Below are positions 36,578 to 46,156 of a DNA stretch of 64,000 bases, one piece after another. The stretch covers positions 19,008 to 83,007 of the forward strand of contig DATCIQ010000327.1 in NCBI GenBank assembly GCA_036507635.1, in the 5' to 3' direction. The notes under the pieces are model-generated. The model made no database searches and was not told the DNA's origin. It worked only from the letters and a program-made list of their open reading frames with translations. Origin of the DNA: Gammaproteobacteria bacterium (GTDB lineage Bacteria; Pseudomonadota; Gammaproteobacteria; Steroidobacterales; Rariloculaceae). The translations under genes and the position numbers were made by a program. Positions within the stretch are counted from its first letter, which is position 1; every line of letters begins with the position of its first letter.

Positions 36578-37348
36578 ATGTGTCTCATTGCACTTGGCCT
36601 TCACGCTGCGCGCGACTACTCGTTCGTGCTCGCGGCGAACCGTGACGAGAGACACGCGCGTCCGACGGCAGCCGCCGATTGGTGGCCGAATCGACCGTCG
36701 ATACTCGGGGGCCGCGACCTCGTGGCCGGCGGCAGCTGGCTCGCGGTCGATCGGCGCGCTCGCGTGGCCGCGGTCACGAACTACTTCGAAGCCGGGGCCG
36801 CGCCGGGCGTCGAGTCGCGCGGGCTGCTCGTAGCCCGCTTTCTGCGCGAAGGGACGGAAGCGCATCACTTCAGCGCAGAGCTCAAGCCCGCGCTCCAGCG
36901 TTTCGGCGGCTTCAATTTGTTGCTGTTCGACGGCCGGCGCCTGCAATACGCGAGCAATCGCGCGCCCGCCCGCGAGCTCGGCAACGGCATCCACGCGTTC
37001 GGCAACGCCGCTCCCGGCGCCGACTGGCCGAAGATTCGCCGCGCGCGCGCAGGCCTCGCGGAATGGCTTGCAAGCGGTGCCGCAATGGAAACACTGTTCG
37101 ACTTATTGGCGGAGCAGACGCACGGCACGGCGGGTGCGGAAGCGCATCGCCGCTCCTTGTTCATTCGCGGCAATGAGTTCGGCACGCGCAGCTCCACGGT
37201 GCTGCTGGTGCGTCGCGACGGCACGGCGGTTTTCGTCGAGCGGCGATTCGACTGCGCGGGCGAATGGGATGGCGAAAGCCGCTACGAGTTCGAGCTTGAG
37301 AGTGCGCCCGACATCACCCGCGACGCGCTCACTGCAGACGCCCCTTGA
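36578..37348 (+). CDS. NRDE family protein (TANGO2/DUF833-like)
   Basis: MCLIALGLHAARDYSFVLAANRDERHARPT shows the N-terminal Cys and the NRDE motif. GGSWLAV follows. Confidence 0.8.
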   Translation: MCLIALGLHAARDYSFVLAANRDERHARPTAAADWWPNRPSILGGRDLVAGGSWLAVDRRARVAAVTNYFEAGAAPGVESRGLLVARFLREGTEAHHFSAELKPALQRFGGFNLLLFDGRRLQYASNRAPARELGNGIHAFGNAAPGADWPKIRRARAGLAEWLASGAAMETLFDLLAEQTHGTAGAEAHRRSLFIRGNEFGTRSSTVLLVRRDGTAVFVERRFDCAGEWDGESRYEFELESAPDITRDALTADAP

Positions 37349-37982
37349 GCCACACGCGGAAGTCGCGGATCTCAGCCGCACACAGCGAGTGCCCCATGTC
37401 GTAGGCCTTGAAAGTCACGTCGTAACCCAAGCTCGTGAGCCCGTCATACGAGGCGGCGGCGAGCGCCAACGGAATGACGGGGTCGGCGCTGCCGTGCGCC
37501 ATCCAGATCGGCGTGCCGCGATTAGCCGGGGCTCGTTCGGTCGCAAGCGTCTCGGCCAGCGGCAAGTAAGTGGACAGCGCAAGCACTCCGGCAAGCGGGC
37601 GCGTCTCGCGCAGCGCGGTAAAAAGCGCAATCGCTCCGCCTTGCGAGAAACCCGCAAGCACGAGACGCTGCGAGGCAATTCCGCGCGCCTCCTCGCGGTC
37701 GATGAGCTCGGCGACGGCGGTGGCGCTGGCGCGAATGCCTGGCCCGTCTTCCGGGCCCGCTCGTCCGAGCGCCAACAGGTCATACCAGGCGCGCATCGCC
37801 AAGCCGCCATTGATCGTGACCGGGCGCACCGGCGCATGCGGAAAGACGAAACGCACGGCGAACGGCAACTCGAGCTCCGGAACGAGCGGCTCGAAGTCGT
37901 GGCCGTCCGCACCGAGGCCGTGCAACCAAATGACCGCGGCTCGAGCATTGCGGCCCGTTTCGACTTCAACCGTAGCCAACAT
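37329..37982 (-). CDS. Carboxylesterase/phospholipase family alpha/beta hydrolase
   Basis: 217 aa with VIWLHGLGADGHDF, the nucleophile elbow GFSQGG, and Asp/His later (HGSADPVIP, MGHS). Confidence 0.85.
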   Translation of the reverse strand: MLATVEVETGRNARAAVIWLHGLGADGHDFEPLVPELELPFAVRFVFPHAPVRPVTINGGLAMRAWYDLLALGRAGPEDGPGIRASATAVAELIDREEARGIASQRLVLAGFSQGGAIALFTALRETRPLAGVLALSTYLPLAETLATERAPANRGTPIWMAHGSADPVIPLALAAASYDGLTSLGYDVTFKAYDMGHSLCAAEIRDFRVWLKGRLQ

Positions 37983-38043: not shown

Positions 38044-38511
38044 ATGCCGACCGCCACTGCCGAACAACAGCACGAGCGCCGCAAGGCGATCGCGCGCTTG
38101 CTGCACGAGCATGCCGTCACGCGGCAGTCCGAGCTCGTCGAGTTGCTGCGTGCGGCGGGTTTCCCCGCGACGCAATCGAGCGTGAGCCGTGACCTCAAAG
38201 ACTTGGGTGCCGCGAAGCTCAAAGACGGCTACAGCTTGCCGGACGACGGCGACGACGGCAATGCCAAATCGTTGCTCAACGTCGCTGAGTTCATTCGCGA
38301 CATTCGCGCGGCCGGCCCTAATTTGCTCGTCGTTACGACGGTCGTCGGCGCAGCGCAGCGCGTCGCCGTAACGCTCGATCGCATCAATTGGCCCGAAGTC
38401 GTCGGCACGCTGTCCGGCGACGACACGATTTTCATTGCGACGTCGAGCTCCACGCAGCAACGACGGCTGCGCGGGCGCCTCCGACAGAGTCTGAAAGGGA
38501 CCACGACATGA
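38044..38511 (+). CDS. argR: Arginine repressor
   Basis: The winged-helix N-terminus reads RKAIARLLHEHAVTRQSELVELLRAAGFPATQSSVSRDLKDLG. The C-terminal oligomerisation/arginine-binding domain reads GTLSGDDTIFI. Confidence 0.9.
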   Translation: MPTATAEQQHERRKAIARLLHEHAVTRQSELVELLRAAGFPATQSSVSRDLKDLGAAKLKDGYSLPDDGDDGNAKSLLNVAEFIRDIRAAGPNLLVVTTVVGAAQRVAVTLDRINWPEVVGTLSGDDTIFIATSSSTQQRRLRGRLRQSLKGTTT

Positions 38512-39719
38512 GCACAACTACCGATAATCCGATCGTCCTCGCTTTCTCGGGGGGGCTCGATACGTCCTTTTGCGTGCCCTGGCTCACGGAGACCTACCGG
38601 CGCCCCGTCGTCACGGCCACGGTCAATACGGGCGGGCTCGATGCCGCCGCGGAGCGCTCCTTGGACGAGCGAGCGCGCAAGCTCGGCGCCGTCGATCACC
38701 TCATCGTCGACGCGCGCGACGAGTTCTTCGATAGCGTGCTCAAGTTTCTCATCATGGGCAACGTGCGGCGCGGTCAGATGTACCCGCTCTGCGTCGGCGC
38801 GGAACGCAGCGTTCAGGCGCAGCACTTGGCGAGAATCGCGCGCCGCCTCGGTGCGAATACCGTCGCGCACGGCTGTACCGCGGCCGGCAACGATCAGATT
38901 CGCTTCGAGGTCATCTTGAAGACGCTCGCGCCGAATCTCGAGATTCTCGCGCCCGTCCGCGATCATGCGTGGGCGCGCGCCGACCAAGTCGCTTTCTTGG
39001 AGAAGCGCGGCCTGCCGATACCCGCACGGGGCTCCGCCTATTCGATCAACCGGGGCCTCTGGGGCGTCACGATCGGCGGCACGGAGACACTCGATTCCGC
39101 GGGCAGCATTCCCGAATCCGCGTGGGTGTTAAGCAGCGGCGCGTTCGACGCGCCGCGCCAACCTTTGGAGATCGAGATCGAGTTCGCTCAAGGAGTACCG
39201 GTTGCCATCGACGGTGAGAAGCTTCCGCCCGTCGCGCTTGTCGAGCGCCTCGAAAGCATCGGCGGAGTGTTCGCCATCGGCCGCGGCATTCATCTCGGCG
39301 ATACGATCCTCGGTACGAAGGGTCGCGTCGCGTTCGAGGCGCCGGCCGCGGAGATCCTGCTCCATGCGCACCGCGAGCTCGAGAAGCTCACGTTGACCGC
39401 CATACAGGCGCGCGTCAAAGAGCAGCTCGGTCATATTTATGGCGACCTCGTGCACGAGGGCAAGCAGCTCGATCCCGCCTGCGCGGACATCGAGGCGCTC
39501 TTGTCCTCTTCGCAACGGCGCGTCACGGGCACCGTGCGCTGCCAGCTTAGGCCCGGGAGTCTCTTCGTGCTCGGCGTGCGTTCGCCGCACTCGCTCATGG
39601 CCGCGAGCCGCGGCAAGTACGGCGAGTCCGCCGGCGAGTGGACGAGCGCGGACGCGATGGGTTTCTCACGCATCCTGTCCTTGCCGGGAATGCTGTATAC
39701 GCGAGCGGGGGGTACCTGA
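38508..39719 (+). CDS. argG: Argininosuccinate synthase
   Basis: The in-frame ATG at 38508 overlaps the argR stop. The product starts IVLAFSGGLDTSFCVPWL, the N-type ATP-PPase motif. Confidence 0.95.
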   Translation: MSTTTDNPIVLAFSGGLDTSFCVPWLTETYRRPVVTATVNTGGLDAAAERSLDERARKLGAVDHLIVDARDEFFDSVLKFLIMGNVRRGQMYPLCVGAERSVQAQHLARIARRLGANTVAHGCTAAGNDQIRFEVILKTLAPNLEILAPVRDHAWARADQVAFLEKRGLPIPARGSAYSINRGLWGVTIGGTETLDSAGSIPESAWVLSSGAFDAPRQPLEIEIEFAQGVPVAIDGEKLPPVALVERLESIGGVFAIGRGIHLGDTILGTKGRVAFEAPAAEILLHAHRELEKLTLTAIQARVKEQLGHIYGDLVHEGKQLDPACADIEALLSSSQRRVTGTVRCQLRPGSLFVLGVRSPHSLMAASRGKYGESAGEWTSADAMGFSRILSLPGMLYTRAGGT

Positions 39720-39720
39720 C

Positions 39721-40794
39721 ATGCGTTCCATCTTGGTCGACAAGATCGCATCCGTTGCGCTCGCGGCTGAGTTGCAGCACGAGATACGCGTGAGCGAGGA
39801 GATTCCGTGCGAGGAAGGCGTGCTCGTGGCCGTCGAGATTCTGACGAGCAAAGCGCACTACAACCAACTCGAGCTCACGAGCGGCCGCATGGCCCAGGTC
39901 AAACGCGGCGACGTCATCGTCGGCGCGCTCGGCCATCGCAAAGCCTTGTTCGGCTACTCGGGCCACTTGCCGGACCACCTCGAGCCGGGCGACGTCGTGC
40001 AGCTTCTGAACTTGGGCGGCGTGATCGGTATCTGCGACTCGATCAACCCGTCGCACGGGCCGCCCTTCGATTGCCGCGTGCTCGGCGTCGTGCTGGATTT
40101 TCCTTACCTCGGCCAGCGGGTCGGCGTGCCGGCGCGCGTCGCCGGGCGCGAGCTCGTCGCGCGCAAGGCGCTCATGTCGACGGGCGTGCCCGTGGTTGCG
40201 ATCGCCGGAACCTGCATGAACTCGGGTAAAACCGCTGCTGCGTGCGCGATCATCAGCCGCTTCCGGCACAACGGCCTCGTCGTGGATGCCTTCAAAGCCA
40301 CGGGCGTGGCGCTCAGGCGCGACATCCTGGCGATGGAGGACGCCGGCGCGCGCAATACGGAAATTTTCACCGACTACGGCGTCGTTGCGACGACGTCCGC
40401 GAACGCGCCTGATCTTGCACGCAATTTGTTGGCGGACGCCATGGGCAAGAAGCCGGATGTGATCGTTTTCGAGCTCGGCGACGGATTGCTCGGCGCTTAC
40501 GGCGTCGAAGCCATCCTGCACGACCCCGACATTCGCGCCCAGCTTCGCGCCGTCGTCTTGTGCGCCAACGATCCCGTAGCCGCCTGGGGCGGCGCGAAGC
40601 TTCTGCGCGAGGAGTTCGACATCGAACCGACGGTCATCGCGGGCCCCGCCACGGATAATCAGGTCGGCATCGATATCATCAAGAAACGCTCGAACCTGCC
40701 CGCCATCAACGCGATCTCGGCGGGTCCCGAGCTCGGCGACTTGCTGCAAACTTGCATCGGGCTCAGCGCGCGAAGCGCGAAGGCGGCCCCATGA
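39721..40794 (+). CDS. Uncharacterised two-domain protein with a BioD/CobQ/DUF1611-style P-loop, embedded in the arg operon
   Basis: 357 aa. It starts 1 nt after the argG stop, and its own stop overlaps the argC start (ATGA). An N-terminal beta-rich domain is followed by VVAIAGTCMNSGKTAAACAII (GTxxxxGKT) and a later VIVFELGDG (Walker-B-like). There is no match to ArgA, ArgJ or ArgE by eye. Confidence 0.65.
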   Translation: MRSILVDKIASVALAAELQHEIRVSEEIPCEEGVLVAVEILTSKAHYNQLELTSGRMAQVKRGDVIVGALGHRKALFGYSGHLPDHLEPGDVVQLLNLGGVIGICDSINPSHGPPFDCRVLGVVLDFPYLGQRVGVPARVAGRELVARKALMSTGVPVVAIAGTCMNSGKTAAACAIISRFRHNGLVVDAFKATGVALRRDILAMEDAGARNTEIFTDYGVVATTSANAPDLARNLLADAMGKKPDVIVFELGDGLLGAYGVEAILHDPDIRAQLRAVVLCANDPVAAWGGAKLLREEFDIEPTVIAGPATDNQVGIDIIKKRSNLPAINAISAGPELGDLLQTCIGLSARSAKAAP

Positions 40795-41852
40795 CCACGG
40801 ACTTTCCCGTCATCGTGCTCGGCGGCTCGGGTTACGTCGCCGGAGAGATGCTGCGGCTCATCGTCCAGCACCCGCGGCTTACGCTCGGAGCGGCCGTGTC
40901 GACGAGCCAAGTGGGCGAGCCCATCGCCGCGGCGTTTCCCCATTTGGCGCCCGTCTATCCGGACGCGAAATTCGTGTCCTTGGACGGCCTGCTCGAGCGG
41001 CTCGGCGATCACGAGCATTGGGTCGCGCTGTCGGCGGCCCCGCACGGTGTTTCCGCGGCGTTGGTCGATCAATTGCTCGAGGCAGCGGAAGGGGCCGGCA
41101 TTCGCCTGACCGTCGTCGACGCTTCGGCCGATTTTCGTTTCGCCGATGCCGCCCGCTTCGCCGAGGTTTACGGGCAGGCTCATCCTGCGCCGCAGCGGCT
41201 CGCGCAGTTCCGCTGCGCGGTCCCCGAGCACCTCGAACGCTTGGATACGCCGCATGCGGCGCACCCGGGTTGCTTCGCGACGGCGATGCTGCTCGGCATC
41301 GTGCCGCTGGTCCGCGCAGGTATCTGCACCAACACGTTCTACGTAAGCGCGGTGACAGGCAGCACGGGTGCGGGCCGCGCTCCGCGCGATACCACGCATC
41401 ACCCGTTCAGGCACGGCAACTTGTTCGCCTATCAGCCGCTCATACACCGCCACGACCCGGAGGTCCGCGCGCTGACTCGCGCCGCGACGGGCGCCGACGT
41501 GCGCTTGCGCTTCGTACCCCAGTCGGGACCGTTTGCGCGCGGCATTCATGCCACAATTTTTGCGGAGAAGGATTCGCGGTACAGCGCCGACGACGTGGAA
41601 GCGGCGCTCCGCGACTGCTATCGGGACTCGCGCTTCGTGCGCGTGCAGTCGTCGCCGCCGCGCGTGAAGGACGTCGCAGGCAGCAACTACGCGGCGCTCA
41701 GCGCCGACTTGAGCGGCGACACGGTCGTCGTCTGCGCGGTGCTCGACAATTTGCTCAAAGGCGCCGCCGGAGGAAGCATTCAGTGGGTCAATCGATTGCT
41801 CGGCCTGCCCGAAACGACGGGCCTCGAAGCGCCGACTGCGGGGTGGGTGTGA
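40791..41852 (+). CDS. argC: N-acyl-gamma-glutamyl-phosphate reductase
   Basis: MTTDFPVIVLGGSGYVAGEMLRL is followed by the active-site region HPGCFATA and a C-terminal DNLLKGAAG. Confidence 0.92.
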   Translation: MTTDFPVIVLGGSGYVAGEMLRLIVQHPRLTLGAAVSTSQVGEPIAAAFPHLAPVYPDAKFVSLDGLLERLGDHEHWVALSAAPHGVSAALVDQLLEAAEGAGIRLTVVDASADFRFADAARFAEVYGQAHPAPQRLAQFRCAVPEHLERLDTPHAAHPGCFATAMLLGIVPLVRAGICTNTFYVSAVTGSTGAGRAPRDTTHHPFRHGNLFAYQPLIHRHDPEVRALTRAATGADVRLRFVPQSGPFARGIHATIFAEKDSRYSADDVEAALRDCYRDSRFVRVQSSPPRVKDVAGSNYAALSADLSGDTVVVCAVLDNLLKGAAGGSIQWVNRLLGLPETTGLEAPTAGWV

Positions 41853-43018
41853 TGGACCGTCGAAATGGGAAGCTCGGGGCGCATCTAAGCGAGGTCTATT
41901 CGCTCCTGCCGTTCGAGCCTGTGCGCGGCGAGGGCGTGTACCTCTACGACAAGAGCGGACGCCGGGTCCTCGATCTCTACGGGGGGCATGCGGTCGTCGT
42001 GCTCGGCTACGGGCATCCGGAGCTCACGGCGGCCATCGCACGTCAAGCCCGCGAGATGGTGTTTCAAACCAACGCAGTGCCGCTCGCCGTCCGCGACGCG
42101 GCCGCAGAGAAGCTCGCCGATTTCGCGCCCGCCGCGCTCGAGCGCGTGTTCTTCGTCAACAGCGGCGCCGAAGCCAACGAGAACGCGCTGCGCATCGCGC
42201 TCAAGACGACGGGCCGGCCGAAGGTCGTCGCGCTCGAGCATAGCTTCCACGGCCGCACCGCCGCGGCGGCCGCCGCAAGCTGGGGGGCCGCCAAGAGCTG
42301 GTACGGTTTCCCGCGCTCGCCGATGGACGTCGTGTTCGTGCCTCGCGACGATGCCGCCGCGCTCGCCGCCGCCGTCGATCGCGAGACCGCTGCCGTGATC
42401 GTCGAGCCCGTGCAGGGACTCGCCGGCGCGTACGATCTGTCGCCTGCGTTTCTGCGTGGGGCTCTCGACGCGTGCGAGCGCGTCGGCGCGTTGTTGATTC
42501 TCGACGAAGTCCAGACCGGCATGGGGCGCCTCGGGCAACCGTTCGGCGCGCAACTCACCGGCGTCGTGCCGCACATTCTCACGACCGCAAAAGGTCTCGC
42601 GGGCGGATTCCCGGCCGGCGCCGTGCTCATGCGCCGCGAGATCGCCAAGGGCTTGCGCCCCGGCGAGCTCGGCACGACGTTCGGCGGCGGCCCGGTGGCA
42701 TGCGCGGCCATGTGCGCGACCATCGATGCGATTCGGCGCGATGACCTCTTGGCACGCGTTCGCGACGTGTCGGCCTATGTACGCAGCACCTGCGTAGTCG
42801 GTCCCGTCAAGAGCATTCACGGCGCGGGACTCTTGCTCGGCTTGCGCACGCAACCGCGCGCCGCAGCCGTGCGCGATGCTTTGCTCGAGCGCAACATTCT
42901 TACGGGAACGAGCGCGGATCCGAATGTGCTGCGCCTCCTGCCGCCGCTCATACTGGAACGACGACATATCGACGACTTGGCCAGCGCCTTGGGGGACCTT
43001 GCCGATGTATCGCTTTAA
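41852..43018 (+). CDS. argD: N-acyl-ornithine aminotransferase (class III PLP)
   Basis: The ATG at 41852 shares 1 nt with the argC stop (TGATG). Motifs include FVNSGAEANE, LILDEVQTGMGR and TFGG. Confidence 0.9.
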   Translation: MDRRNGKLGAHLSEVYSLLPFEPVRGEGVYLYDKSGRRVLDLYGGHAVVVLGYGHPELTAAIARQAREMVFQTNAVPLAVRDAAAEKLADFAPAALERVFFVNSGAEANENALRIALKTTGRPKVVALEHSFHGRTAAAAAASWGAAKSWYGFPRSPMDVVFVPRDDAAALAAAVDRETAAVIVEPVQGLAGAYDLSPAFLRGALDACERVGALLILDEVQTGMGRLGQPFGAQLTGVVPHILTTAKGLAGGFPAGAVLMRREIAKGLRPGELGTTFGGGPVACAAMCATIDAIRRDDLLARVRDVSAYVRSTCVVGPVKSIHGAGLLLGLRTQPRAAAVRDALLERNILTGTSADPNVLRLLPPLILERRHIDDLASALGDLADVSL

Positions 43019-44006
43019 CGACCTCGCCGATTTTTCCTTCGAAGAGATCACCGCGCTGCTCGACTTGGCGGCGCAGCTCGATCGCCGTCCCGAGCCTAGA
43101 GCGCTCGAGGGCAAGGTGCTCGCGCTGTTGTTTTTGAGCCCGTCGCTGCGCACGTTGTCCTCGTTCCAAGCCGGTATGGCGCGTCTCGGCGGCGGCGCTT
43201 TCGTGATCTCGCCCGACATGTCGATTCACGGGATCGAGACGCGGCCGGGAATCGTCATGGACGGGGCCGCGGCCGAGCACATTCGCGAGGCCGTGCCCGT
43301 GATCGCGTCCTACGGCGACGCGATCGGCATACGCGCGTTTGCGCAGCGGCGCAGCCTCGCCGACGACCTCGCGGACAAGGAGTTCGAGGAGCTCGCCGTG
43401 CTCGCCAACAAACCTCTGATCAACATGGAATCGGCGATCCAGCACCCTTGCCAGAGCCTCGCCGACTGGAAGACGCTCGATGACTTGTTGGTGCCGCGTC
43501 AAGGCGGGCGCTTCGTGTTGTCTTGGGCCTACCATCCGCGTCCGCTGCCGCTCGCGGTGCCCGCGGCCACCCTGCACATGGCGGCGATGCGCGGCATGGA
43601 CGTCGTTCTGCACCGTCCGCCCGGCTTCGAGCTGCCCGAGAGCATCATGCAGAAAGCGCGCCAAGCGGCCGACCTTTCGGGCGGCCAGATCATCGAGACG
43701 GCCGACCACCGCGAAGCGATGGAGGGTGCCCATATCATCTACGCGAAGTCGTGGACGTCGACCAAGTACTATGGCGATCAGCTCGGCGATCATTCACTGC
43801 GCGAGCCGCTCGTCGACTGGTGCGTGGACGAGCCGTGGTTTGCCAACGCGCGACCGGATTGCCGCTTCATGCACTGCTTGCCCGTGCGCCGCGGCGTCGT
43901 CGTCGCCGATCGCATACTCGACGGTCCGCGCAGCGTCGTGATTCACGAGGCGCGTAACCGCATGGTCGTGCAGATGGCCGTGCTTTATCGGATGTTGAAG
44001 GGGTGA
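43005..44006 (+). CDS. argF': N-acyl-L-ornithine carbamoyltransferase (ArgF'), sequence closer to the N-succinylornithine type
   Basis: MYRFNDL is followed by FLSPSLRTLSSF, IVMDGAAAEHI, HPCQSLAD, WAYHPRPLPLAVP and MHCLPVRRG. These are the hallmark blocks of the AOTCase/SOTCase family. Confidence 0.88.
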   Translation: MYRFNDLADFSFEEITALLDLAAQLDRRPEPRALEGKVLALLFLSPSLRTLSSFQAGMARLGGGAFVISPDMSIHGIETRPGIVMDGAAAEHIREAVPVIASYGDAIGIRAFAQRRSLADDLADKEFEELAVLANKPLINMESAIQHPCQSLADWKTLDDLLVPRQGGRFVLSWAYHPRPLPLAVPAATLHMAAMRGMDVVLHRPPGFELPESIMQKARQAADLSGGQIIETADHREAMEGAHIIYAKSWTSTKYYGDQLGDHSLREPLVDWCVDEPWFANARPDCRFMHCLPVRRGVVVADRILDGPRSVVIHEARNRMVVQMAVLYRMLKG

Positions 44007-44953
44007 ACGCGATGTCCCGGCTCACAGGCAACGAACGTGCGATCGTCGTAACGGCCTTGCGGCATGCAGCGCCGTATTTGCGTATGTTCAAGCGCAAGGT
44101 GTTCGTGCTCAAGGCCGGCGGCGAGGCGTTCACGTCGCGCGAGTCGGCGCGATCGCTCGTCGAGCAGATCGGCATCCTGCATCAAGTGGGTATCCGCGTC
44201 GTGCTCGTGCATGGCGGCGGTCCACAGGCGACGGAGCTCGCTGCCCGGCTCGGGCTCAAGACCCAATTCGTCGAGGGGCGGCGAGTGACCGACGAGCAGG
44301 CGTTGCATGTCGCGACGATGGTGCTGAACGGCGAGATCAATACGCGTATCGTTGCCGCCTGTCGCGAATTCGGCGTGCCTGCGGTGGGCTTGAGCGGCGT
44401 CGATGCGGGGTTGATCAGCGCCAAGCGGCGGCCGCCGGTCCCGCGTGATGGGTCAGCTGAGCCTATCGACTATGGGTTTGTCGGCGATATCGAAAGCGTC
44501 GACGCGAGCGTGCTCGTCAAGCAACTCGACAACGATCTCGTGCCGATCGTAAGCCCGCTGTCCGCCGACGACAAAGGCACGCTCCTCAACATCAATGCCG
44601 ACACCGTCGCGGCCGTGATCGCGGGCGCGGTCGGTGCCGAGAAGCTCATCATCGCGACGGGAGCGCCGGGAATCCTCGAGAACGTGGGCGACCCCCGCTC
44701 GCTGATCTCGTATATCGATCGCGCCGGGTTGAAAAGGCTGCGCGAGGAAGGCCGGCTCACGGACGGCATGCTGCCGAAGGTCGCCGCCATCGAGCGGGCG
44801 CTGGCCGCGGGCGTGCCGCGTGTGCACGTGATCTCGTACGCTTTGCCGGACAGTCTCCTGCTCGAGGTGTTTACGAACGAAGGCACGGGCACGCTCGTCG
44901 TCGACGACATCAAGCACTTGAGCCCGGCGGAGCAGCTCGGTCAGGATACCTGA
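44003..44953 (+). CDS. argB: N-acyl-glutamate kinase
   Basis: Motifs include VFVLKAGGEAF, VLVHGGGPQ and NINAD. The GTG at 44003 overlaps the argF' stop, and an alternative ATG lies at 44012. Confidence 0.92.
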   Translation: MNAMSRLTGNERAIVVTALRHAAPYLRMFKRKVFVLKAGGEAFTSRESARSLVEQIGILHQVGIRVVLVHGGGPQATELAARLGLKTQFVEGRRVTDEQALHVATMVLNGEINTRIVAACREFGVPAVGLSGVDAGLISAKRRPPVPRDGSAEPIDYGFVGDIESVDASVLVKQLDNDLVPIVSPLSADDKGTLLNINADTVAAVIAGAVGAEKLIIATGAPGILENVGDPRSLISYIDRAGLKRLREEGRLTDGMLPKVAAIERALAAGVPRVHVISYALPDSLLLEVFTNEGTGTLVVDDIKHLSPAEQLGQDT

Positions 44954-44962
44954 GTCAAAAGC

Positions 44963-46156
44963 ATGGCACGACTGTGGGACAAGGGCCTGCCGCTCGACGA
45001 GCGCATTTTGCGTTTCACGGCGGGAGAAGATCATCTCCTCGACGCGCGCCTCGTCGCTTACGACGTACGCGCATCGATCGCCCATGCCGAGATGCTCGCC
45101 GCGCAGGGGCTCTTGACGGCCGAAGACTCGGCCGCGATCTGCGCGGGTCTCGAGGCGCTCGGCGCGAGCCACACGGCCGGAGAGTGGTCGATCGCTCTCG
45201 ACGACGAAGATGCGCACGGGGCTCTCGAGCGGCGCCTCATGGAACGAATCGGTCCCGCCGGCGGACGCGTGCATCTCGGCCGCTCGCGCAACGACCAAGT
45301 GCTCGCGGCGCTCAGGCTTTACCTCAAAGACGCCGTTCGCGAGCTCGCGGATCTCGCCGGGCACGTCATCGACGCGCTCAACGAGCTCGCCGCGACACAG
45401 GGCGAGGTCCCGCTGCCGGGCTACACGCACATGCAGCCGGCCATGCCGAGCTCCGTCGACCTGTGGGCGTGCGGCTTCGCCGCCGAGATCGCCGACGACC
45501 GCGCCGGCCTCATGGCGGCTGTCCGGCGAGCGGATCTCAACCCGCTCGGCTCCGCGGCCGGCTATGGCGTGCCAGGCCTGCCGTTGGATCGCGAAGCCAC
45601 GCGGCGCGCGCTCGATTTCGCGGCCGTCCAGGAGCCCGTCACGGCCGTGCAGTTGAGTCGCGGCAAAGCCGAAGCGTCGCTGATCTTCGAGCTCGCCCTC
45701 CTCGTCGGCGATCTCGGCCGGTTGTCTTCGGACTTGATTCTCTTTTACACGGCGGAATACGCGTTCGTCTCGCTGCCGGACGAGATGACGACGGGCTCGT
45801 CGATCATGCCGCAAAAAAGAAATCCTGACATTTTCGAGCTGGTTCGCAGCGCACCCGCCACAGTGCATGGGGCGTTGGTGGAATCCCTCGCCATCACCGC
45901 CAAGCTTACTTCGGGATATCACCGCGATTTGCAGCGGCTCAAAGCGCCGTTGTTTCGGAGCATCGATTTGGCCGGCGCCTGCACGACCATCATGGCGCAC
46001 GCGCTCGCAGGCGTGCGGTTTCGTCCCGAGAACATCGAGCTCGGCGACGAGCTCTACGCCGCCGAACGCGCCAACGAGCTCGTGCTCAAAGAAGGTTTGC
46101 CGTTTCGCGAAGCTTACCGGAAGATTGCGGCCGGGCTCGCCAAGAGAAAGCGATGA
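44963..46156 (+). CDS. argH: Argininosuccinate lyase
   Basis: MARLWDKGLPLDERILRFTAGEDHLLDARLVAYDVRASIAHAEML is followed by GYTHMQPAMP and the fumarate-lyase signature GSSIMPQKRNPD. Confidence 0.93.
   Translation: MARLWDKGLPLDERILRFTAGEDHLLDARLVAYDVRASIAHAEMLAAQGLLTAEDSAAICAGLEALGASHTAGEWSIALDDEDAHGALERRLMERIGPAGGRVHLGRSRNDQVLAALRLYLKDAVRELADLAGHVIDALNELAATQGEVPLPGYTHMQPAMPSSVDLWACGFAAEIADDRAGLMAAVRRADLNPLGSAAGYGVPGLPLDREATRRALDFAAVQEPVTAVQLSRGKAEASLIFELALLVGDLGRLSSDLILFYTAEYAFVSLPDEMTTGSSIMPQKRNPDIFELVRSAPATVHGALVESLAITAKLTSGYHRDLQRLKAPLFRSIDLAGACTTIMAHALAGVRFRPENIELGDELYAAERANELVLKEGLPFREAYRKIAAGLAKRKR

Follow-up and report, generated by a model that had tools for sequence, protein, structure and literature searches.

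The window analysed here is a stretch of 64,000 nucleotides from contig DATCIQ010000327.1 of a gammaproteobacterial genome (assembly GCA_036507635.1; Steroidobacterales, Rariloculaceae), and it carries an arginine-biosynthesis operon in which the gene argF' encodes a transcarbamylase of 333 amino acids (Table 1). Both transcarbamylase Pfam domains were detected in ArgF' (OTCace_N, PF02729, E = 4e-28; OTCace, PF00185, E = 9e-30), together with the superfamily motifs S47-x-R49-T50, H147-P-C-Q150 (HPxQ) and H290-C-L-P293 (HxLP) and the arginine R110 of beta4. In a family review of 2015 the criterion for the knotted N-acetylornithine and N-succinylornithine transcarbamylases (AOTCase and SOTCase) is a proline-rich loop with extended 80's and 120's loops (PMC4581275). 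The proline-rich loop of the knotted family is found in ArgF' as YHPRPLPLAVP (residues 176-186), and the HMMER alignment with the Protein Data Bank (PDB) chains of the Xanthomonas campestris AOTCase had no gaps over residues 4-160, including the 80's and 120's loops. In comparison with Table 1 of the same review, ArgF' has kept the active-site residues S47, L48, R49, T50, R110, H147, Q150, C291, L292, R319, E142 and K248, and all of the listed carbamoyl-phosphate ligands were present except for the tryptophan of the 80's loop. E142 and K248 are the anchors of the alpha-carboxylate (E144 and K252 in the X. campestris enzyme, E142 and K236 in the SOTCase of Bacteroides fragilis). As judged from a dN/dS of about 0.1-0.2 against the nearest relatives and a median dN/dS of 0.23, argF' is under purifying selection, and no paralogue of it was found in the window. 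An AlphaFold2 model based on 35 close homologues had a mean predicted local distance difference test (pLDDT) score of 47.7, which is too poor for reading the C-terminal trefoil knot. We regard ArgF' as almost certainly a functional N-acyl-ornithine transcarbamylase of arginine biosynthesis, and its preferred substrate is probably N-succinyl-L-ornithine.

ArgF' was aligned by MAFFT with the AOTCase of X. campestris and the SOTCase of B. fragilis. A preliminary description of this DNA had placed an alanine at the position that separates acetyl from succinyl specificity and had proposed a multiple alignment as a check of the column. Both HMMER and MAFFT put A90, in the block IVMDGAAAEHI, without gaps on Glu92 of X. 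campestris and Pro90 of B. fragilis, and the residue at the specificity position is indeed Ala and not Glu. The B. fragilis block VIMDGDKPEHL given in that description was also correct, and the full B. fragilis sequence used for the alignment was identical to PDB 1js1 over residues 1-318. According to the 2015 review, the discriminating residues are E92, N185 and K302 in AOTCase, and A, S, P, V or Q, then P, then V, I or E in SOTCase (PMC4581275). The corresponding residues of ArgF' were A90, P182 and V299, with all three members of the AOTCase triad replaced. The succinyl carboxylate is held by His176, Arg178 and Arg278 in the B. fragilis SOTCase (PMC4581275), and ArgF' has H177, R179 and R295 at these positions.

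The mutagenesis of Glu92 on which the preliminary description had leaned could be traced: E92A, E92S and E92V mutants of the X. campestris enzyme are deposited in the PDB, and according to the 2015 review (PMC4581275) and two GapMind papers (2020; bioRxiv 10.1101/2024.10.14.618325), E92A is by itself enough to change the substrate of AOTCase to succinylornithine. The best PDB match of ArgF' was the E92A mutant itself (3l02, HMMER E = 1.8e-61, residues 4-329), with the E92S and E92V chains ranking just below it, and the B. fragilis SOTCase was matched with E = 1.5e-47. The X. campestris AOTCase (3kzc) and its E92A mutant are thus the closest solved relatives, with 39% identity to ArgF', and the mutant has the residue of ArgF' at the specificity position; however, Glu92, Asn185, Lys302, Arg53 and Trp77 of the wild-type enzyme are all missing from ArgF'. 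The SOTCase of B. fragilis (PDB 1js1, 2fg6, 2fg7) is likewise the product of an arginine-cluster gene and shares with ArgF' the knotted-family sequence architecture, S47-L48-R49-T50 in the same numbering, R110, E142, H147 and Q150. The HCLPVRR block, a catalytic Arg close to the C terminus and the His/Arg/Arg succinyl anchors are common to both enzymes as well, and both have Pro where X. campestris has Asn185 and an aliphatic residue where it has Lys302. The B. fragilis SOTCase differs from ArgF' in its overall sequence (33% identity) and in having Pro90, Arg51 and Trp75 in place of Ala90, Leu51 and His75, and the host of ArgF' is a proteobacterium. It had been claimed that further blocks of ArgF' were nearer to the Bacteroides enzyme; this was true of the blocks themselves, as WAYHPRPLPLAVP and MHCLPVRRG resemble WAPHPRPLPQAVP and MHCLPVRRN of B. 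fragilis over WTYHPKPLNTAVA and SHCLPLRRN of X. campestris, but not of the overall identity, which is higher to X. campestris.

As the discriminating triad and the succinyl anchors match and the DxxxSMG ornithine loop was not found, ArgF' is a SOTCase-type enzyme by every published sequence criterion. Since all three discriminating positions and all three anchors fit SOTCase, the proposal of the preliminary description that the operon runs the N-succinyl variant of arginine biosynthesis is backed more strongly than had been argued there. The proposal is sound but not new for the clade. A GapMind preprint of 2026 (bioRxiv 10.1101/2024.10.14.618325, section 11 and Appendix 2) predicts that Steroidobacter denitrificans and related bacteria use succinylated arginine intermediates, a conclusion based on the residue at position 92, which is Ala, Pro, Ser or Val in 90% of 70 neighbouring ArgF' proteins.

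The residues of interest were followed in three samples, namely 72 full-length family representatives from 50%-identity clusters (70 of them covering the fifth motif position), the 120 closest database homologues (78-99% identity, from independent assemblies), and 54 ArgF' genes from species-representative genomes, called species operons below. A residue state is not a statistical pattern, and therefore conservation among relatives served as the control in place of a chance test. Position 90 was Ala in 54/54 species operons, and the pattern xAAEH was found in 120/120 of the closest homologues and in 52/54 species operons. Ala was also the commonest residue at this position among the family representatives (22/72), with Glu in only 3/72; the full E/N/K triad was seen in one representative (P0140), and two more had two of its residues. 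The true AOTCases formed a small branch nested within SOTCase-like sequences in a rough neighbour-joining tree.

The operon argR-argG-X-argC-argD-argF'-argB-argH is tightly packed and translationally coupled, with overlapping start and stop codons, and the same operon is conserved across Steroidobacterales-like genomes. The ArgF' proteins of Steroidobacter denitrificans and its relatives, which are predicted SOTCases, are encoded in this same operon with a hypothetical gene between argG and argC, and those from Steroidobacteraceae operons were 58-65% identical to ArgF' and have SLRTL and AAEH. The NCBIfam matches of ArgD to argD-family models were all below the cut-offs, and ArgB consists of the kinase domain only, without a fused acetyltransferase. 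No argA, argJ or GNAT gene was found in the operon (38044-46156) or among ten other mid-sized open reading frames of the window that were scanned (311-451 amino acids).

Table 1. Positions of argF', its diagnostic residues and the neighbouring genes in the window (aa, amino acids; nt, nucleotides).
Feature	Position	Strand	Remarks
argF' coding sequence	43005..44006	+	333 aa; ATG at 43005, stop at 44004-44006; translation of the open reading frame
S47-L48-R49-T50-L51	43143..43157	+	tcg ctg cgc acg ttg; SxRT motif for phosphate binding, fifth residue Leu in place of Arg
His75	43227..43229	+	cac; 80's-loop residue at the position of the adjacent-subunit Trp77 (AOTCase) or Trp75 (SOTCase); gapless alignment
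Block IVMDGAAAEHI	43251..43283		residues 83-93
Ala90	43272..43274	+	gcc; acyl-specificity position; Glu92 in X. campestris, Pro90 in B. fragilis
Ser102	43308..43310		position of Arg104 in X. campestris
Proline-rich loop Y176-H-P-R-P-L-P-L-A-V-P186	43530..43562	+	holds H177 and R179 (B. fragilis succinyl anchors) and P182 (X. campestris Asn185 position)
H290-C-L-P-V-R-R-G-V-V299	43872..43901	+	HxLP motif; R295 (B. fragilis succinyl anchor R278); V299 (X. campestris Lys302 position)
argR	38044..38511	+	arginine repressor, first gene of the cluster; TIGR01529, E = 6e-32; position conserved in related operons
argG	38508..39719	+	argininosuccinate synthase; TIGR00032, 301.6 against a cut-off of 268
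gene X	39724..40794	+	356 aa, between argG and argC; no Pfam or NCBIfam family; overlaps argC start (ATGA)
argC	40791..41852	+	TIGR01850, 273 against a cut-off of 234
argD	41852..43018	+	acetyl/succinyl-ornithine family aminotransferase; Aminotran_3, E = 1e-89; ATG overlaps argC stop, end overlaps argF' by 14 nt
argB	44003..44953	+	N-acyl-glutamate kinase; TIGR00761, 216 against a cut-off of 151; GTG start overlaps argF' stop
argH	44963..46156	+	argininosuccinate lyase; TIGR00838, 301 against a cut-off of 279.5
polA	after argH
TANGO2-family gene	36578..37348	+	Pfam E = 4.5e-56; just upstream of argR
alpha/beta-hydrolase-like open reading frame	37329..37982	-	just upstream of argR

In the pathway that we propose, glutamate would be succinylated to N-succinylglutamate by the product of gene X, as predicted for the family to which it probably belongs, followed by phosphorylation by ArgB, reduction by ArgC and transamination by ArgD. 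ArgF' would then move the carbamoyl group of carbamoyl phosphate onto the delta-amino group of the N-acylated L-ornithine, the acyl group being most likely succinyl. The product would be desuccinylated by a putative enzyme encoded elsewhere, and ArgG and ArgH would finish the route to arginine.

The first-step enzyme of B. fragilis is a GNAT-type synthase, whereas the partner of ArgF' is the unannotated gene X. For Steroidobacter denitrificans and its relatives, the hypothetical gene between argG and argC has been predicted to be the missing N-succinylglutamate synthase; the grounds were its gene neighbourhood, an anti-correlation with ArgA and a weak match by Foldseek to 7XRJ, the structure of a D-glutamate acetyltransferase (bioRxiv 10.1101/2024.10.14.618325). 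Gene X probably belongs to this predicted family of alternative synthases, because its position in the operon is identical in Steroidobacteraceae genomes. Homologues of X were found in at least 564 species genomes, and in the best 80 loci X always adjoined argC/argB. A cluster cut down to (argR)-X-argC-argB was seen in 14 related genomes (L027, L031, L033, L034, L038, L042, L044-L046, L049, L050, L057, L058 and L072), with argF', argG and argH absent from 14/14 of these loci and argD from 13/14. As the reduced loci keep only X-argC-argB (and argD in L072), X appears to travel with the early N-acyl-glutamate steps. The protein carries a P-loop-like motif, GTCMNSGKT, and with E-values up to 10 allowed, Pfam and NCBIfam yielded no more than weak hints of a P-loop protein of the MobB/CobB/CobQ kind. 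Its AlphaFold2 model (pLDDT 70, predicted template modelling score 0.64) had no Foldseek match in the PDB at E <= 1e-3; P-loop GTPases of the signal recognition particle type ranked highest (E ~9e-3), and 7XRJ (DgcN) was outside the top 50. A profile of 22 X homologues gave no match to PDB sequences at E <= 10.

At the phosphate-binding motif, the reading S-L-R-T-L of the preliminary description was confirmed, although the positions 43146-43160 that it gave are 3 nt off. In the MAFFT alignment L51 falls on R53 of X. campestris and R51 of B. fragilis. The motif had been called a universally conserved S-x-R-T-R, which is overstated. The superfamily motif was defined as Fx(E/K/N/D/A/Q)xSxRT in the 2015 review, where the carbamoyl-phosphate ligands within it are S, x, R and T only for every characterised member (PMC4581275); a later review writes it as SXRTR. 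Of the 70 representatives, 51 had Arg as the fifth residue, and the 19/70 without Arg had Leu (9), Lys (3), Gln (3), His (2), Val (1) or Asn (1). An active transcarbamylase without Arg at this position is also known: the phaseolotoxin-resistant ornithine transcarbamylase (OTCase) ArgK of Pseudomonas syringae reads SGRTS (PMC10765591). Unlike ArgF', ArgK is an unknotted enzyme acting on free ornithine, it has Ser and not Leu, and its motif is tied to toxin resistance, of which there was no hint in ArgF'. A literature search on what the fifth Arg of the motif (Arg94 in human OTC) does in the structure gave nothing useful.

The substitution is shared by nearly all relatives of ArgF', as a check of the orthologues proposed in the preliminary description brought out. 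The closest 120 homologues had SLRTL (85) or SLRTM (35), and Leu or Met was found at position 51 in 52/54 species operons, with the codons CTG, CTC, CTT, CTA, TTG and ATG; in total 172/174 relatives had Leu/Met51. On this sequence record Leu/Met51 is a conserved lineage trait. In the tree the Leu/Met51 sequences formed one clade with sister lineages having His or Gln, and one independent Leu was seen elsewhere. Two Steroidobacteraceae orthologues inside this clade, L052 and L054, read SLRTR (codons CGC and CGA) and are natural revertants. A lost acidic partner of Arg51 was not found in a column-by-column comparison of Leu51 with Arg51 sequences, a comparison that is confounded by the Leu51 group being almost entirely one clade. 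The same confounded comparison brought out Ser102: this position is Ser in 93% of the Leu51 clade and Arg in 25/38 Arg51-type representatives, so that another common Arg close to the core of the carbamoyl-phosphate domain has been lost.

The one listed carbamoyl-phosphate ligand that ArgF' lacks is the Trp of the 80's loop (W77 in AOTCase, W75 in SOTCase), which comes from the adjacent subunit and is involved in binding of the second substrate (PMC4581275). The replacing residue, His75, was invariant in the closest homologues (120/120) and was found in 30-31/54 species operons, which make up the branch with 72-80% identity to ArgF' (Rariloculaceae/Woeseiaceae-like metagenome-assembled genomes). 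The Steroidobacteraceae branch has kept Trp75. Among the 72 representatives, 53 had Trp at this position and none had His. Transcarbamylases differ in the residue that makes this 80's-loop contact to carbamoyl phosphate, and human OTCase has His there (PMC4581275); for this reason a working carbamoyl-phosphate site with His75 is plausible. Neither the SLRT[L/M] motif nor His75 is mentioned in bioRxiv 10.1101/2024.10.14.618325 and, as far as could be found, neither replacement has been described in the literature.

Leu51 is likely to be tolerated, as the Arg that it replaces is not among the listed carbamoyl-phosphate ligands, and we consider both Leu51 and His75 likely to be tolerated or compensated lineage-specific changes and not signs of a new function. 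It is improbable, though conceivable, that the change from Arg51 to Leu/Met in the Steroidobacterales-like clade, followed by that from Trp75 to His in the Rariloculaceae/Woeseiaceae-like branch, altered carbamoyl-phosphate affinity, inter-subunit communication or sensitivity to transition-state analogues, as SGRTS does in ArgK, or that the two changes accompany a non-succinyl acyl group supplied by gene X.

The top NCBIfam model for ArgF' was NF003384, the equivalog 'N-acetylornithine carbamoyltransferase' (326.9 bits against a cut-off of 288), and together with the higher identity to the X. campestris enzyme and the AOTCase name that JGI and NCBI give to the homologues this would argue for an N-acetyl-L-ornithine transcarbamylase in an acetylcitrulline pathway of the Xanthomonas type. 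We think this unlikely. ArgF' has A, P and V in place of E92, N185 and K302, the first of these exchanges by itself is reported to switch the substrate, and NF003384 does not discriminate the two activities, since the full triad was present in just one of the representatives. The SOTCase-signature homologues P0002-P0120 were scored above the cut-off by NF003384 and are named AOTCase in JGI and NCBI annotations. Such naming of proteins with the SOTCase signature is likely a systematic misnaming, and BT3717, misnamed in the same way, is a precedent documented by GapMind 2020. A classical OTCase acting on free ornithine is very improbable: secondary matches to OTCase models were obtained (for example NF001986, E = 8e-51), but their scores were far too low (NF001986, 173 against a cut-off of 306; TIGR00658, 148 against 281), as were those of all ornithine, aspartate and putrescine transcarbamylase models of NCBIfam relative to their own cut-offs, and the ornithine loop DxxxSMG was not found. 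Still less credible is that an error of sequencing or assembly produced the Leu51 codon, which the preliminary description had allowed for, or that argF' is a decaying inactive copy, even if the fifth Arg is found in most transcarbamylases and belongs to the motif as some reviews write it. An error is excluded because Leu/Met51 recurs in the relatives with five Leu codons plus ATG, and decay because the gene is under purifying selection and Leu/Met51 has been kept across the lineage; moreover, the reading frame is intact, it is coupled to its neighbours and no paralogue stands beside it in the window.

It is also unlikely, in our opinion, that ArgF' prefers another acyl-ornithine or is promiscuous, with His75 and Ala88-Ala89-Ala90 reshaping the acyl pocket. 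His75 stands at the place of a Trp involved in binding of the second substrate and is invariant in the clade and unique in comparison to the representatives, position 179 varies in close relatives (R, K, L, Q or M), and the first-step acyltransferase, on which the choice of acyl donor depends, comes from an uncharacterised family. However, the three succinyl anchors are all present in ArgF', the cluster has no candidate for an alternative acyl-CoA enzyme, and the sister Steroidobacteraceae, with Trp75, agree with it in operon and in the A/P/(A,V) signature, so that the chemistry of the pathway is probably shared with them. Several observations nevertheless count against N-succinyl-L-ornithine as the substrate. 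The specificity rule is founded on one AOTCase, one SOTCase and point mutants, and no published enzyme assay for any member of the ArgF' clade was found in the searched literature. Automated annotation calls ArgF' an N-acetylornithine carbamoyltransferase. Where the family has a Trp in contact with carbamoyl phosphate and the second substrate, ArgF' has His, and the pocket may differ; at the Arg178 anchor of B. fragilis, ArgF' has Arg but some close relatives have K, L, Q or M. Neither the operon nor the ten scanned open reading frames of the window (311-451 amino acids) yielded an N-acylcitrulline deacylase of the ArgE type (M20 peptidase), and ArgE is also missing in Steroidobacter according to GapMind (bioRxiv 10.1101/2024.10.14.618325). 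In addition, the link of X to D-glutamate acetyltransferase or a glutamate acyltransferase was not reproduced by either the structural model or the profile.

The main value of the finding of a SOTCase-type ArgF' lies in correct annotation, as hundreds of relatives are named AOTCase whereas every published marker of specificity indicates the succinyl route. It adds a well-documented case in which a large group of environmental Gammaproteobacteria would make arginine through the succinylated intermediates first described in Bacteroidetes, and it offers a natural experiment on two presumed hallmarks of the family, the fifth motif Arg and the Trp of the 80's loop. The more interesting questions concern gene X as a candidate N-succinylglutamate synthase, and the N-succinylcitrulline desuccinylase.

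Two further genes lie just upstream of argR (Table 1). The gene for a TANGO2-family protein was syntenic in 41/80 related loci, and the alpha/beta-hydrolase-like open reading frame on the opposite strand was syntenic in 30/80.

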